Shown here piece by piece: positions 14,970 to 17,310 of a stretch of 35,421 nucleotides of DNA. The notes under the pieces were generated by a model. The model was not told the DNA's origin. It was given only the letters and a program-made list of their open reading frames with translations, and did not search any database. Source of the DNA: Candidatus Omnitrophota bacterium (GTDB taxonomy: Bacteria > Omnitrophota > Gorgyraeia > Gygaellales > UBA12090); the NCBI GenBank assembly GCA_023247895.1, contig JAHFFP010000004.1, forward strand, positions 1 to 35,421, written 5' to 3'. How positions within the stretch are numbered: position 1 is the first letter of the stretch; every line of letters begins with the position of its first letter. Made by a program: the position numbers and the translations under genes.

Positions 14970-15355
14970 TTATTGGGGTAGGGGTAGACATAGTTGAGAT
15001 TTCACGGATAAAGAGCGCAGTAAGCCGCTGGAAAGAGGCATTCTTAAAAAGAATATTTACCGAGAACGAGATACAGTATTCCCAAAATAAGAAATTTGTT
15101 TATCAGCATTTGGCGGCGCGTTTTGCCGCCAAAGAAGCGGTATTAAAGGCAATCGGTGATGCGTCTATACAGCGGATTGAATGGCATAACGTAGAGGTGT
15201 TAAATGACGAATTTGGCAAGCCCTATATTCGTCTCTCTGGCGAGGCCAAGAAGGTAAAAGAAGACAAAAATATCACCGATATCATTATCAGTATGTCGCA
15301 TACCCATAAAGTCGCGGTTGCCAATGCCATACTTATCAAGGATGGCAAAGAGTAG
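14966..15355 (+). CDS. acpS: Holo-ACP synthase
   Basis: GVGVDIVEI, RFAAKEAVLKA, GKP, SMSH. Confidence 0.95.
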   Translation: MIIGVGVDIVEISRIKSAVSRWKEAFLKRIFTENEIQYSQNKKFVYQHLAARFAAKEAVLKAIGDASIQRIEWHNVEVLNDEFGKPYIRLSGEAKKVKEDKNITDIIISMSHTHKVAVANAILIKDGKE

Positions 15356-16244
15356 CGTTCTTTCTCATAGAAAGCCACACACGCACAAAGGAGATTATGG
15401 CCATATTTTTGTCTTAGCCGGCTCAAGAGGATTAAGCGGCGCGGCTATCCTTTGCGCAGATAGCGCAATGCGCACAGGCGCAGGATTAGTTACTTTAGGG
15501 ATTCCTGAAAGCCTGTATCCGATTGTTGCAAGGAGAGTTTTCTTAGAGGTAATGGCTAAACCTTTGCCGGAAACAAAGGAGCAAGCCTTACATCAGAGTG
15601 CGTATAAGAAAATCTTTGATTTTGCGCAAAAAACAGATGTCTTAGCTATAGGCCCGGGATTATCCCGAAATCATTCAACCCAAAGGTTAATCCTTAAAAT
15701 TATATCTGCAATAGATAAACCTATGGTGATAGATGCCGATGGCCTAAATGCACTTGTAGGTCATTTGAATATTTTACGCACTACGCACTACGCACGGCGC
15801 ATGACGATATTAACTCCTCACCTGGGTGAATTTAGCCGTTTGATAGGGAAACCTGTTATAGAGGTAGAAAAAAACAGAGAAATACTTGCAAAAAAGTTTT
15901 CCTCTGATTATAATATTATCCTTGTTTTAAAAGGCCATAAGACGGTGGTTGTTTCTCCCGGTAAAAAAGTATATATAAATACCACGGGTAATCCCGGAAT
16001 GGCAACCGCAGGTTCGGGTGACGTTTTGACCGGGATGATAGCAGCGCTCTTGGCCCAAGGCTTACATGGATTTGAGGCAGCGAAATTAGGCGTGTATCTG
16101 CATGGTTTAGCCGGAGATTTAGCCGCTAGGGAAAAGACTCAAGCGGGCATGATTGCCTCTGACATAATAGAAAAGATACCCCAAGCGATTAAGCGAATTG
16201 ATTTTTGCCGGCGTAGCTCAGTTGGTAGAGCAATTGTTTTGTAA
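15342..16244 (+). CDS. nnrD: ADP-dependent NAD(P)HX dehydratase (YjeF C-terminal domain only)
   Basis: HKGDYG, GAGLV, IGPGL, IDADGLN, LTPHLGEF, MATAGSGDVL; no epimerase domain; start uncertain. Confidence 0.9.
   Translation: MAKSSVLSHRKPHTHKGDYGHIFVLAGSRGLSGAAILCADSAMRTGAGLVTLGIPESLYPIVARRVFLEVMAKPLPETKEQALHQSAYKKIFDFAQKTDVLAIGPGLSRNHSTQRLILKIISAIDKPMVIDADGLNALVGHLNILRTTHYARRMTILTPHLGEFSRLIGKPVIEVEKNREILAKKFSSDYNIILVLKGHKTVVVSPGKKVYINTTGNPGMATAGSGDVLTGMIAALLAQGLHGFEAAKLGVYLHGLAGDLAAREKTQAGMIASDIIEKIPQAIKRIDFCRRSSVGRAIVL
15886..15914 (+). promoter_or_regulatory. Putative internal sigma70 promoter in nnrD driving the tRNA-Thr/ORF/tRNA-Tyr unit
   Basis: TTGCAA-17 nt-TATAAT. Confidence 0.45.
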
Positions 16245-16279
16245 ACAATGGGTCGGGGGTTCGATTCCCTTCGCCGGCT
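16207..16279 (+). tRNA. tRNA-Thr (TGT)
   Basis: GCCGGCG/CGCCGGC acceptor stem; ATTGT-TTTGTAA-ACAAT anticodon arm; GTTCGATTC T-loop. Confidence 0.93.
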
Positions 16280-16294
16280 TTAAAATTTATTAAA

Positions 16295-16915
16295 ATGCAA
16301 AGATTACAACAGAGTATTTACTCAGCACCGTTAGATTTTACTGAGGTAAAGGCTTTATATTGGGATAAAGAATATACCATGCAGGAAATCGCAAACAAAT
16401 TTAACATTTCTTTATGGGCGCTTTACACTTTTATGAAAAAATACAAAATTGAGCGCAGGAATTTTTCTCAAGCAAACTATGTTGTTTCTAATAGGTTAAA
16501 GCCGCAATTTAAAATAAAACAAGAACTTTCATCTCTAGATGAAAAGTTAAAAGTCGCAGGAATTATGCTTTATTGGGCAGAAGGTACATTAAATAGAAAC
16601 ACGGTAGATTTTGTCAATAGCAACCCTCGTATGATAAAGGTATTCCTAAGGTTTTTAAGAGAAATTTGTGGAGTTAGTGAGAAAAGGCTGCGTTTGTATC
16701 TTTATGTGTATTCCTATCATAATGTAAGAACTATAATGGAATATTGGCATAAAGTAACAGCTATTCCCGTTAACCAATTCACAAAGCCATATGTGAGGAA
16801 AGGAAGTTTGAATAAAACGGAAAGAAAATTAGTTTACGGATTGGTGCATATTAGATATAATGATAAACGATTGTTACAAATAATTAAGGATTGGATTGAG
16901 GAATATATAAAATAG
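16295..16915 (+). CDS. HTH + single-motif LAGLIDADG-like homing-endonuclease-like protein
   Basis: N-terminal HTH (LYWDKEYTMQEIANKFNIS), LAGLIDADG-like helix VAGIMLYWAEG, then VDFVNSNPRMIKVFLRFL; AT-rich; sits between two tRNAs. Confidence 0.7.
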   Translation: MQRLQQSIYSAPLDFTEVKALYWDKEYTMQEIANKFNISLWALYTFMKKYKIERRNFSQANYVVSNRLKPQFKIKQELSSLDEKLKVAGIMLYWAEGTLNRNTVDFVNSNPRMIKVFLRFLREICGVSEKRLRLYLYVYSYHNVRTIMEYWHKVTAIPVNQFTKPYVRKGSLNKTERKLVYGLVHIRYNDKRLLQIIKDWIEEYIK

Positions 16916-16922
16916 TATATAT

Positions 16923-17252
16923 GGGCAGGTACCCAAGCGGCCAAAGGGGACAGACTGTGTAAACGCAGCGCCGGGGAGTAATCTTCGGTGTAAAAGCTGG
17001 TGAATTCAGGGAACCCCTTAGAGTAATATCTTAAGGGCAATCCTGAGCCAAGCCGTCAAAGTTGTATGACTGGAAGGTGCAGAGACTAAGCGCCAGCCGT
17101 CCCGGTTAAAAGGATGATGAGATAGTCCAAGCCTCAAGGTAACTTGAGGGCAGTCGCCACAAAGCGTTGGCGATTGTCCGCCACTAATTCTTTGGTGGAC
17201 ACTTGAAATCTGTTGCACCTGTGCTTCAGAGGTTCGAATCCTCTCCTGCCCA
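16923..17252 (+). tRNA. tRNA-Tyr (GTA), intron-containing; exons 16923-16958 and 17206-17252
   Basis: Spliced 83-nt cloverleaf: GGGCAGG/CCTGCCC-A, ACAGA-CT GT^A AA-TCTGT, long variable arm, AGAGG-TTCGAAT-CCTCT. Confidence 0.92.
16959..17205 (+). ncRNA. Group I self-splicing intron (IC3-like), 247 nt, no internal ORF
   Basis: Exon ends in U and intron ends in G; P1 CTGT/GCAG with U.G at the splice site; P3 GCTGG/CCAGC; P GAATTCAGGGAA; Q AATCCTGAGC; R GCAGAGACTA; S GAGATAGTCC (P7 GACTA/TAGTC); GTAA tetraloops on P2 and P9. Confidence 0.92.
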
Positions 17253-17259
17253 TTCTTCT

Positions 17260-17310
17260 TTAATTAGGGACAGACACTAATTAAATTAATTAGTGTCTGT
17301 CCCTAATTAA
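17260..17310. repeat. Perfect 25-bp-arm palindrome between convergent tRNA-Tyr and thpR; possible bidirectional terminator or REP-like element
   Basis: TTAATTAGGGACAGACACTAATTAA-A-TTAATTAGTGTCTGTCCCTAATTAA. Confidence 0.8.

Follow-up and report, generated by a model that had tools for sequence, protein, structure and literature searches.

Collaborative homing between a free-standing endonuclease and a group I intron that carries no open reading frame (ORF) is a proposed route for the first origin of mobile group I introns. Endonucleases of the I-Ssp6803I type (PF11645, PD-(D/E)XK) reportedly lie inside the group I introns of tRNA-fMet genes, a finding attributed to Bonocora and Shub in 2001. 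According to the papers cited here, collaborative homing is documented in two phage systems only. One is cyanophage S-PM2, in which F-CphI stands beside an ORF-less psbA group I intron (Zeng, Bonocora and Shub, 2009); the sections of PMC6083498 and PMC3984707 that deal with it state that the intron prevents self-cleavage and that the endonuclease mobilises the intron. A free-standing endonuclease without an intron partner, the GIY-YIG homing enzyme SegB, lies in a tRNA gene cluster of phage T4 and promotes inheritance of the tRNA region, a process named "intronless homing" (PMC2330249). In this study, we analysed a window (the whole stretch of 35,421 nucleotides (nt), contig JAHFFP010000004.1) from a genome of the phylum Omnitrophota (0.72 Mb, 66% complete), in which a free-standing gene of 206 amino acids (aa) fills the spacer between tRNA-Thr(UGU) and a tRNA-Tyr(GUA) gene split by a group I intron lacking an ORF. 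The comparative pattern of sequences points, with a probability that we put at about 0.5, to collaborative homing of the gene and the intron, with the anticodon arm of tRNA-Tyr as the putative target and the intron as the source of immunity.

An earlier note on this DNA had described an AT-rich ORF of 206 aa lying 15 nt after tRNA-Thr and 7 nt before tRNA-Tyr, with the intron 43 nt downstream of it. Every distance proved exact, the spacer after tRNA-Thr occupying 16280–16294 and the 7 and 43 nt being counted from the ORF stop (Table 1). The G+C content of the ORF region was 32–36%, compared with about 41–47% in the flanks, in agreement with the description. The intron contained no sense-strand frame of at least 40 aa in the ORF list, as the note had also held. 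Its statement that Thr(UGU) and Tyr(GUA) are commonly adjacent was borne out by ORF-less relatives, in which 13 of 20 loci had tRNA-Thr(UGU) in the fetched flank, with a spacer of 8–262 nt. The default tRNA scan reported only tRNA-Thr(UGU) and none downstream; it missed tRNA-Tyr because the group I intron splits the gene, which was recovered by ARAGORN in intron mode with a 247-nt insert. The intron matched RF00028 with 99.5 bits (gathering score 50, E 4e-26), and this was the sole RF00028 match in the source genome. Its boundaries were taken from ARAGORN, the sequence and the two halves of the BLAST match (16923–16958 and 17224–17252); the Rfam alignment placed the core at 16993–17149, with misplaced ends. 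The group I hallmarks were present, with T16958 (U) before the 5' splice site and G17205 at the 3' end.

We then compared the anticodon arms of de-duplicated tRNA-Tyr genes of the Omnitrophota group. Mature sequences were aligned, with exons joined where the gene was split, and the set was supplemented with 40 ORF-less genes from distant families and 37 from families f41 and f18, the ORF-less sample being chosen partly by BLAST rank and partly by family. The consensus arm was CAGA-CTGTAAA-TCTG. The results showed that all intron-bearing genes carried this arm, whether the ORF was present (27/27), reduced to a remnant (2/2) or absent (4/4). Among intron-less genes, it was found in 0 of 9 with the ORF, 0 of 3 with a remnant and 58 of 87 with no ORF. 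The consensus arm was thus carried by 0 of 12 intron-less genes beside an ORF or remnant, against 58 of 87 ORF-less genes (p = 8.5e-6), and the 12 genes carried nine different stems. When only consensus-arm genes were considered, an intron was present in 29 of 29 with an ORF or remnant and in 4 of the 62 that lacked the ORF (p = 8e-20). Within family f65, a variant stem was found in G128, which bears the ORF, and the consensus in 4 of 4 ORF-less relatives. A recombinant uniting the ORF with a consensus arm and no intron was seen at none of the 41 Omnitrophota-group loci with an ORF or remnant. These results suggest that the anticodon-arm DNA is the endonuclease target and that it is protected by the intron or by stem changes; an enzyme recognising this DNA would oblige its carrier to protect its own single tRNA-Tyr gene.

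Several observations weigh against this reading of the arm comparison. The Fisher tests ignore relatedness, and eight intron-bearing loci that ARAGORN mis-named (Phe, Ser) were left out of the comparison. The intron-less ORFs belong to families f41 and f18, in which stems are generally variable: stem diversity, measured as the mean pairwise difference per site, was 0.33 and 0.51 for tRNA-Thr(UGU) and 0.54 and 0.43 for tRNA-Tyr. In f60, the corresponding values were 0.17 for tRNA-Thr(UGU) and 0.04 for tRNA-Tyr. Thirteen different tRNA-Tyr anticodon stems occurred in 22 f41 genes versus two in 19 f60 genes, and the contrast between families was similar for tRNA-Thr(UGU). Variant tRNA-Tyr stems were also present in ORF-less members (16/17 in f41, 8/13 in f18), and G041 and G431 share the stem of the ORF-bearing G121 without having the ORF. 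As the stems of f41 and f18 vary in general, a lineage effect may account for the pattern. The pairing needs of the intron could themselves keep the arm uniform wherever an intron is present. Finally, the Patescibacteria-like locus L216 has the ORF beside an uninterrupted consensus arm, and the ORF-less background was sampled in Omnitrophota only.

We infer nuclease activity, the target site and immunity from the locus anatomy, the fold class, the behaviour of the family and the comparative associations. Under collaborative homing, the protein would dimerise through its LAGLIDADG-type helix, pairing two Glu96 residues, and the dimer would recognise the anticodon-arm DNA of tRNA-Tyr, an inverted repeat (NCAGA-CTGTAAA-TCTGN) that would suit a symmetric dimer. 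ORF-less, intron-less alleles would be cut at the anticodon arm, and repair from the ORF-bearing copy would transfer the intron, situated at the break itself, and in most cases also the ORF 43 nt away, with tRNA-Thr(UGU) as the probable left homology arm. In the carrier, the intron at the centre of the inverted repeat would split the site and prevent self-cutting, and by self-splicing it would keep the only tRNA-Tyr found functional. ORF lineages without the intron would be protected by compensatory changes in the anticodon stem. Once the targets were exhausted, the ORF would decay and intron-only loci would remain. A break at the intron site would always convert the intron, and the ORF only with a long tract; intron-only loci without ORF remnants would therefore be expected, and the missing recombinant of an ORF with an uninterrupted consensus arm would be accounted for as well.

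A wider and more tentative version of this mechanism, for which we would give somewhat less than even odds, regards tRNA-Tyr, an essential gene, as a battleground in which the HTH-LAGLIDADG dimer (HTH, helix-turn-helix) cuts the palindromic arm and the host gene escapes through an intron at the dyad or through rewriting of the stem. If so, bacterial tRNA group I introns would persist as "vaccines" against free-standing endonucleases. The diversity of anticodon stems in certain lineages of Omnitrophota and Patescibacteria would in that case record an arms race, which may extend to the paralogue classes at other tRNAs. This idea is weakened by the control stems of tRNA-Thr(UGU), which were about as variable in f41 and f18.

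The position of the gene also fits a different explanation, in which a homing endonuclease cuts tRNA-Tyr at its 5' end or the Thr/Tyr spacer where this is empty, its own insertion destroys the site, and the intron is a passive neighbour that is co-converted. What is constant across the family is a position directly 5' of a tRNA gene, not the intron: the aligned end of the protein lay −8 to +27 nt from tRNA-Tyr in nearly all rows, and the upstream distance ranged from 5 to more than 600 nt. Intron-less spacers at Val(GAC), Pro/Arg(UCU), Gly(UCC)/Thr(GGU), Glu and Ser hold paralogues, and about 30 Patescibacteria-like loci combine the ORF with an intron-less tRNA-Tyr. Trans homing of this kind, by T4 mobE with the nrdB intron, is described in the pertinent part of PMC2790892. 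Left unexplained is the absence of the consensus arm from the 12 intron-less Omnitrophota loci with an ORF or remnant, set against its presence in 58 of 87 ORF-less ones. Conversion tracts ending within 43 nt should sometimes yield the ORF beside an intron-less consensus arm, a combination seen at 0 of 41 loci, and the intron-only loci that lack ORF remnants fit a break at the intron site better. We consider a passenger intron less likely than collaborative homing, though far from negligible.

The association between the ORF and the intron was then examined at the level of loci and genomes. The arrangement of the ORF with an ORF-less tRNA-Tyr intron was found in the window and 10 further genomes, and about 27 de-duplicated loci show it. 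The 11 closest loci (the window and the 10) all had the tRNA-Tyr intron, and three further loci had an intron-less tRNA-Tyr. In a sample of 151 Omnitrophota genomes, tRNA-Tyr with and without an intron was counted in 4 and 2 genomes where the ORF was present and in 4 and 72 where it was absent, with 69 further genomes left outside these counts (Fisher p = 5.5e-4, relatedness being ignored). A near-full-length intron-less tRNA-Tyr match was found in 74 genomes, and 60 of the 60 fetched were confirmed as tRNA-Tyr.

An ORF tree was built from 112 family rows, of which 100 were different, and the intron state was scored on 86 rows. The results showed six changes of intron state, compared with a mean of 35.7 in shuffles, and none of the 500 shuffles gave so few. 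A clade of 33 Omnitrophota rows was entirely intron-bearing, and a Patescibacteria-type clade had 31 rows without and three with the intron. Such clustering fits co-transfer and vertical descent alike, would be produced by co-conversion of a passenger intron alone, and all four combinations of ORF and intron exist. It counts against collaborative homing that vertical inheritance with many losses also fits the tree, whose inner branches are poorly supported. Horizontal transfer within Omnitrophota, considered from the same tree, was dropped because the inner branches were too weakly supported. The earlier note had named an equal frequency of homologues beside intron-less and intron-containing tRNA-Tyr as a refutation; the raw family rows, duplicates included, roughly show this, being about equally divided between intron-bearing (46) and intron-less (40) genes, the latter mostly from Patescibacteria. 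The idea of intron-given immunity survives these raw counts because the intron-less partners in Omnitrophota differ from ordinary alleles in their anticodon arm (0 of 12 with the consensus). The two elements are thus separable, yet far from independent. Four genomes (G125, G059, G015 and G012) have the intron without a neighbouring ORF and without another intact tRNA-Tyr match, and no ORF remnants were found in their spacers at E ≤ 0.01 with frames of at least 25 aa. The idea of a two-part system, put forward in the note, is too narrow for the family, whose paralogues fill other tRNA spacers without an intron.

No second tRNA-Tyr was found in the source genome, at its completeness of 66%. That the split gene is the only one found argues that the intron must splice. 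Contigs from a DNA run covered 16251–17252 as three exact or near-exact pieces; this run is probably the source sample and hence not independent support. In two RNA runs, contigs matched only the tRNA-like parts with 85–95% identity and came from other organisms. One RNA-run contig skipped exactly 16959–17205; it was rejected as evidence of splicing, as it may represent the intron-less gene of another organism. A further DNA-run contig linked Thr to Tyr through 20 other letters and represents the ORF-less locus of another organism.

The same genomes bear on the proposal that the protein is a trans-acting maturase for the tRNA-Tyr intron or for other group I introns of the genome. Some LAGLIDADG proteins are maturases, for example that of the Thermotoga 23S intron according to the section of PMC3984707 concerned. 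Group I introns were present in 24 of 25 family-positive versus 52 of 126 family-negative genomes (p = 2e-7, relatedness being ignored), an association equally compatible with two mobile elements that prosper in a shared set of lineages. The four genomes named above keep their tRNA-Tyr intron with no neighbouring ORF and no other intact tRNA-Tyr found, among them G059, a 95%-complete genome with three intron matches and zero family members. G233, from the genus of the window, retains the intron beside about 40 C-terminal residues of the ORF between Thr and Tyr, and G187 retains it beside about 75 ORF residues. The existence of intron-only and decayed-ORF genomes indicates that the intron does not need the 206-aa protein. 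The 52 intron-containing genomes without a family member, and the intron-less tRNAs that adjoin most family members, speak against a maturase as well, and we regard this role as very improbable. The earlier note had proposed either that the protein cuts intron-less alleles, with the intron giving immunity, or that it aids splicing; the arm counts (0/12 versus 58/87 and 29/29 versus 4/62) lend the first indirect support, and the second is not supported, as introns persist without the ORF.

To characterise the protein, we examined its sequence and an AlphaFold2 model, which had a mean predicted local distance difference test (pLDDT) value of 93.4. The N-terminal HTH claimed in the note was confirmed: HTH_23 matched 13 of 59 family members (each HTH Pfam family matched at most 13 of 59), PDB profile matches fell on residues 7–54, the model had helices at 15–24, 29–35, 40–49 and 57–67, and residues 6–64 matched HTH domains structurally with Z 4.0–5.9. 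The VAGIMLYWAEG helix noted earlier was also recovered, at residues 87–97, with E96 invariant in 59 of 59 aligned relatives; N108, W151 and G182 were the other invariant residues of this alignment. LAGLIDADG homing endonucleases have an alpha-beta-beta-alpha-beta-beta-alpha core and make site-specific double-strand cuts that leave 4-nt 3' overhangs. In an exhaustive structural comparison (VIA-align), residues 70–206 best matched LAGLIDADG domains, which made up at least 10 of the top 36 rows (Z 8.7–4.2). The top match was the endonuclease domain of the Thermococcus VMA intein (7qsu; Z 8.7, root-mean-square deviation 2.8, 87 aligned), followed by I-DmoI (Z 7.1) and E-DreI (Z 6.6). WhiA matched with Z 6.4 (8dy9) and 5.6 (3hyi and 3hyj), and I-Tsp061I, PI-TkoII, I-Vdi141I, I-CeuI, I-MsoI and I-CreI with Z 5.6–4.3 (I-CreI 4.3). 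Because one fold class fills the list of structural matches, residues 70–206 are modelled as a LAGLIDADG-type domain, an assignment supported by structure only.

This assignment has evidence to set against it. Values of Z 4–9 lie in the range that the tool calls common for unrelated matches, those below 8 can be mere resemblance, and WhiA, a non-nuclease, scores about like several endonucleases. Foldseek against the PDB gave no match at E ≤ 0.001, with LAGLIDADG inteins only at ranks 20 and 42; its top rows, OmpA-like domains with template-modelling scores of 0.28–0.30, were judged meaningless and discarded. No LAGLIDADG Pfam family matched the window protein at E ≤ 10, and although the 59 members matched 31 families at E ≤ 0.01, none of the 25 listed was a LAGLIDADG family. 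Searches of the PDB by sequence and by profile returned matches to the HTH only and did not recognise the nuclease domain. The LAGLIDADG likeness claimed in the note is thus supported by the structural matches (Z 8.7–4.3) and finds no counterpart in Foldseek at that threshold or in the LAGLIDADG Pfam families.

We next modelled residues 70–206 as a homodimer. The ipSAE was 0.80 in three runs and 0.00 in the best of three controls; among proteins of solved structure, 20 of 30 pairs and 1 of 23 single chains attained this mark. Contacts agreed between the runs in 100% of cases, with a partner pLDDT of at least 88. The modelled interface was the motif helix 80–96, with residues 95 and 96 of both copies in contact (95–95 and 96–95). 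An I-CreI-like homodimer through the motif helix, with the two Glu96 residues brought together, is predicted by this model; the pass may reflect likeness to solved LAGLIDADG dimers and says nothing of binding in the cell.

The structural matches to WhiA raise the possibility of a domesticated DNA-binding protein of LAGLIDADG ancestry that does not cut and regulates its tRNA operon. WhiA likewise combines an HTH with a LAGLIDADG fold and is, according to the section of PMC3984707 that treats it, a co-opted endonuclease fold; about 60% identity is kept among close relatives of the window protein, a further point in favour of a regulator. The invariant acidic residue at the catalytic position and a predicted dimer that brings two Glu96 together speak for a nuclease instead. 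The distribution is patchy, with a family match in 75 of 401 Omnitrophota species genomes and 63 of 281 genera, often in several copies, and the Thr-Tyr class in 14 of 401; a housekeeping regulator would not be absent in most members of every family. Several paralogues per genome occupy different tRNA spacers, and pseudogenes and remnants exist (for example in G405, G408 and G441), further broken copies carrying stops or frameshifts. We consider a regulator improbable. The patchiness, the site-bound paralogue classes and the decay indicate that the 206-aa ORF is, very probably, a free-standing gene of the homing-endonuclease type and not a housekeeping regulator.

The family itself is large. 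We found 457 relatives in a 90%-identity collection, none of them with a name other than "hypothetical protein" or "YlxM-like", and an exhaustive search at E ≤ 0.001 gave 2757 representative clusters. In 30 of 30 loci examined, a tRNA gene flanked the gene on one side or both at a distance of about 70 nt or less. The closest relatives (41–62% identity) stand between Thr(UGU) and Tyr(GUA); distant relatives (30–45%) stand after Val(GAC), in the Pro(UGG)/Arg(UCU) or Gly(UCC)/Thr(GGU) spacer, or next to Glu, Ser, Arg(CCU) or Ala/Leu(CAA). A contig scan yielded at least 544 loci, the best 80 of which consisted of Omnitrophota (50–62% identity) and Patescibacteria-type records (42–50%), and a search of metagenome contigs for related loci yielded three. 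Literature searches, with subscription journals largely outside their reach, returned no paper on this family or on a tRNA-Tyr group I intron in Omnitrophota, and the sections consulted of PMC11835236, a database paper, likewise describe neither.

Other features of the family were also recorded. In many relatives (L014, L186, L192, L206, L224 and L226–L228 among them), the ORF has no stop of its own and reads 34 nt into tRNA-Tyr, where the last two anticodon bases and A37 form a TAA; the window copy ends at a TAG of its own, 7 nt short of the tRNA. Where such relatives carry the intron, it splits this TAA and the frame continues 69–120 nt into the intron. One operon holds two family classes in the order Thr(UGU)-ORF-Tyr(intron)-Gly(UCC)-ORF-Thr(GGU) (L010/L183, L180, G397:C78 and relatives). 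Some records of metagenome-assembled genomes labelled Patescibacteria, Saccharibacteria or Planctomycetes (L163, L156, L166) are identical or nearest to Omnitrophota, and their labels look unreliable. The same applies to many "uncultured" phylum labels; L174 bears the label Patescibacteria, yet it is identical to L007, which comes from a genome of the Omnitrophota.

Group I introns were then surveyed across the phylum. RF00028 matched in 76 of the 151 Omnitrophota genomes, 59 of them above threshold, with up to seven matches per genome. The introns lay mostly in tRNA genes named Asn(GUU), Leu(CAA), Met(CAU), Arg(UCU), Tyr(GUA) and others, ARAGORN names being unreliable where the insert precedes the anticodon, and also beside the Ile/Ala tRNAs of rRNA operons. 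Long tRNA introns (450–650 nt, at nine loci) encode their own endonucleases: PF11645 PD-(D/E)XK proteins of the I-Ssp6803I type (E 1e-28 to 1e-47) were found in introns assigned to Leu(CAA), Met(CAU), Arg(UCU) and Ser(CGA), and other long introns gave weak HNH matches, one of them over the Pfam cut-off. Intron-borne and free-standing tRNA-aimed endonucleases therefore coexist in one phylum. Some tRNA arrays carry three or four introns in a row (G115:C28, G107:C34, G069:C14). At two loci (L030, L149), a paralogue of the family fills the Pro(UGG)/Arg(UCU) spacer, and at four (L095, L096, L120, L140) the Arg(UCU) gene holds an intron, in one case together with a PD-(D/E)XK gene. No locus with both the paralogue and the Arg(UCU) intron was seen, and the 230–270-nt Pro/Arg(UCU) spacers contained no remnants at E ≤ 0.01 with frames of at least 25 aa.

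The coordinates of the features are collected in Table 1. The palindrome downstream of tRNA-Tyr is probably the end of the tRNA transcription unit and a two-way terminator; its hairpin gave spurious plant microRNA matches in Rfam. Promoter-like sites near the locus were no commoner than in shuffles (6 versus a mean of 5.1). Upstream, a frame resembling NAD(P)H-hydrate dehydratase (15318–16244, 308 aa) enters tRNA-Thr by 38 nt, its final 12 residues being tRNA sequence. The tRNA-Gly(UCC) that follows tRNA-Tyr in most relatives is absent from the window.

Table 1. Coordinates of the features at the tRNA-Thr/tRNA-Tyr locus, numbered from the first letter of the window.
Feature	Position	Strand	Basis
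tRNA-Thr(UGU), upstream neighbour of the ORF	16207–16279	+	ARAGORN; Rfam tRNA 71.5 bits
206-aa free-standing gene (HTH and single predicted LAGLIDADG-fold domain)	16295–16915	+	ORF list; stop TAG 16913–16915
N-terminal HTH region, residues ~15–67	16337–16495	+	Model helices, Pfam, structural matches
Predicted LAGLIDADG-fold domain, residues ~76–206	16520–16912	+	Structural comparison; motif helix = residues 80–96; Glu96 codon 16580–16582
tRNA-Tyr(GUA) 5' exon, 36 nt, last base U35 of the anticodon	16923–16958	+	ARAGORN intron mode; BLAST against intron-less tRNA-Tyr, query positions 1–36
Putative endonuclease target, 5' half (anticodon arm ACAGACTGT)	16950–16958		Comparative pattern
Group I intron without an ORF, 247 nt, separating anticodon positions 35 and 36, final base G	16959–17205	+	RF00028; ARAGORN
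tRNA-Tyr 3' exon, no CCA encoded	17206–17252	+	Sequence, ARAGORN intron mode, BLAST
3' half of the proposed target (AAATCTGT), separated from the 5' half by the intron	17206–17213		Comparative pattern
Perfect palindrome, 20-bp stem, 3–7-nt loop, between tRNA-Tyr and a convergent 2'-5' RNA-ligase-like gene	17262–17308		Terminator-like scan

Hundreds of loci represent every stage, namely the pair, the ORF alone with an altered target, the intron alone, the decayed ORF and the empty locus, which would make collaborative homing testable by comparison. If true, it would account for the persistence of ORF-less introns in the tRNA genes of bacteria, and the compact architecture of an HTH with a single LAGLIDADG domain and a short, defined and probably palindromic target would be of interest for endonuclease engineering. 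The locus also illustrates an annotation problem, as the split tRNA-Tyr is missed by a default scan and the family carries no functional name.

Compared with known systems, the locus resembles F-CphI in the proposed roles of its two parts, since there too, in the sections cited above, the intron is thought to block self-cleavage and the endonuclease confers mobility on the intron. F-CphI differs in its phage host and protein-coding target, whereas the present locus lies on a bacterial chromosome with a tRNA gene as the proposed target. F-CphI has an Endo VII motif, whereas the window protein has a LAGLIDADG-type fold with an HTH and an activity predicted from sequence and model, and here sister lineages seem to use changes in the target stem in place of the intron. 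With SegB, as described in the source cited, it shares a free-standing endonuclease-type gene lodged between tRNA genes; SegB is a GIY-YIG enzyme of a phage without an intron partner, whereas this family occurs on cellular chromosomes of two phyla in paralogue classes tied to particular tRNAs.

Like I-Ssp6803I, the protein would be a homing endonuclease whose target is the anticodon region in a tRNA gene that hosts a group I intron; the I-Ssp6803I gene lies inside the intron and has a restriction-enzyme fold, whereas the window gene lies outside and has a LAGLIDADG-type fold. With I-CreI, I-MsoI, I-CeuI and I-DmoI, it shares the predicted fold (Z 4.3–7.1) and a motif helix ending in an acidic residue and Gly, and with the first three a symmetric dimer, here predicted, through that helix. 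It differs from all four in having no sequence-profile match, an extra N-terminal HTH and an extra helix between strands, and in being free-standing instead of intron- or intein-borne. WhiA (DUF199) also joins a LAGLIDADG fold to an HTH (Z 5.6–6.4), but it is a conserved housekeeping regulator with two degenerate LAGLIDADG domains that lack catalytic residues and a C-terminal HTH, whereas members of the window family have a single such domain with an invariant Glu, carry the HTH at the N terminus, and are patchily distributed, with copies in decay. The features that set the present case apart are the setting in bacterial chromosomes of two phyla (ultra-small bacteria), the architecture of an HTH and one LAGLIDADG-type domain that Pfam does not recognise, and the two putative routes to immunity.

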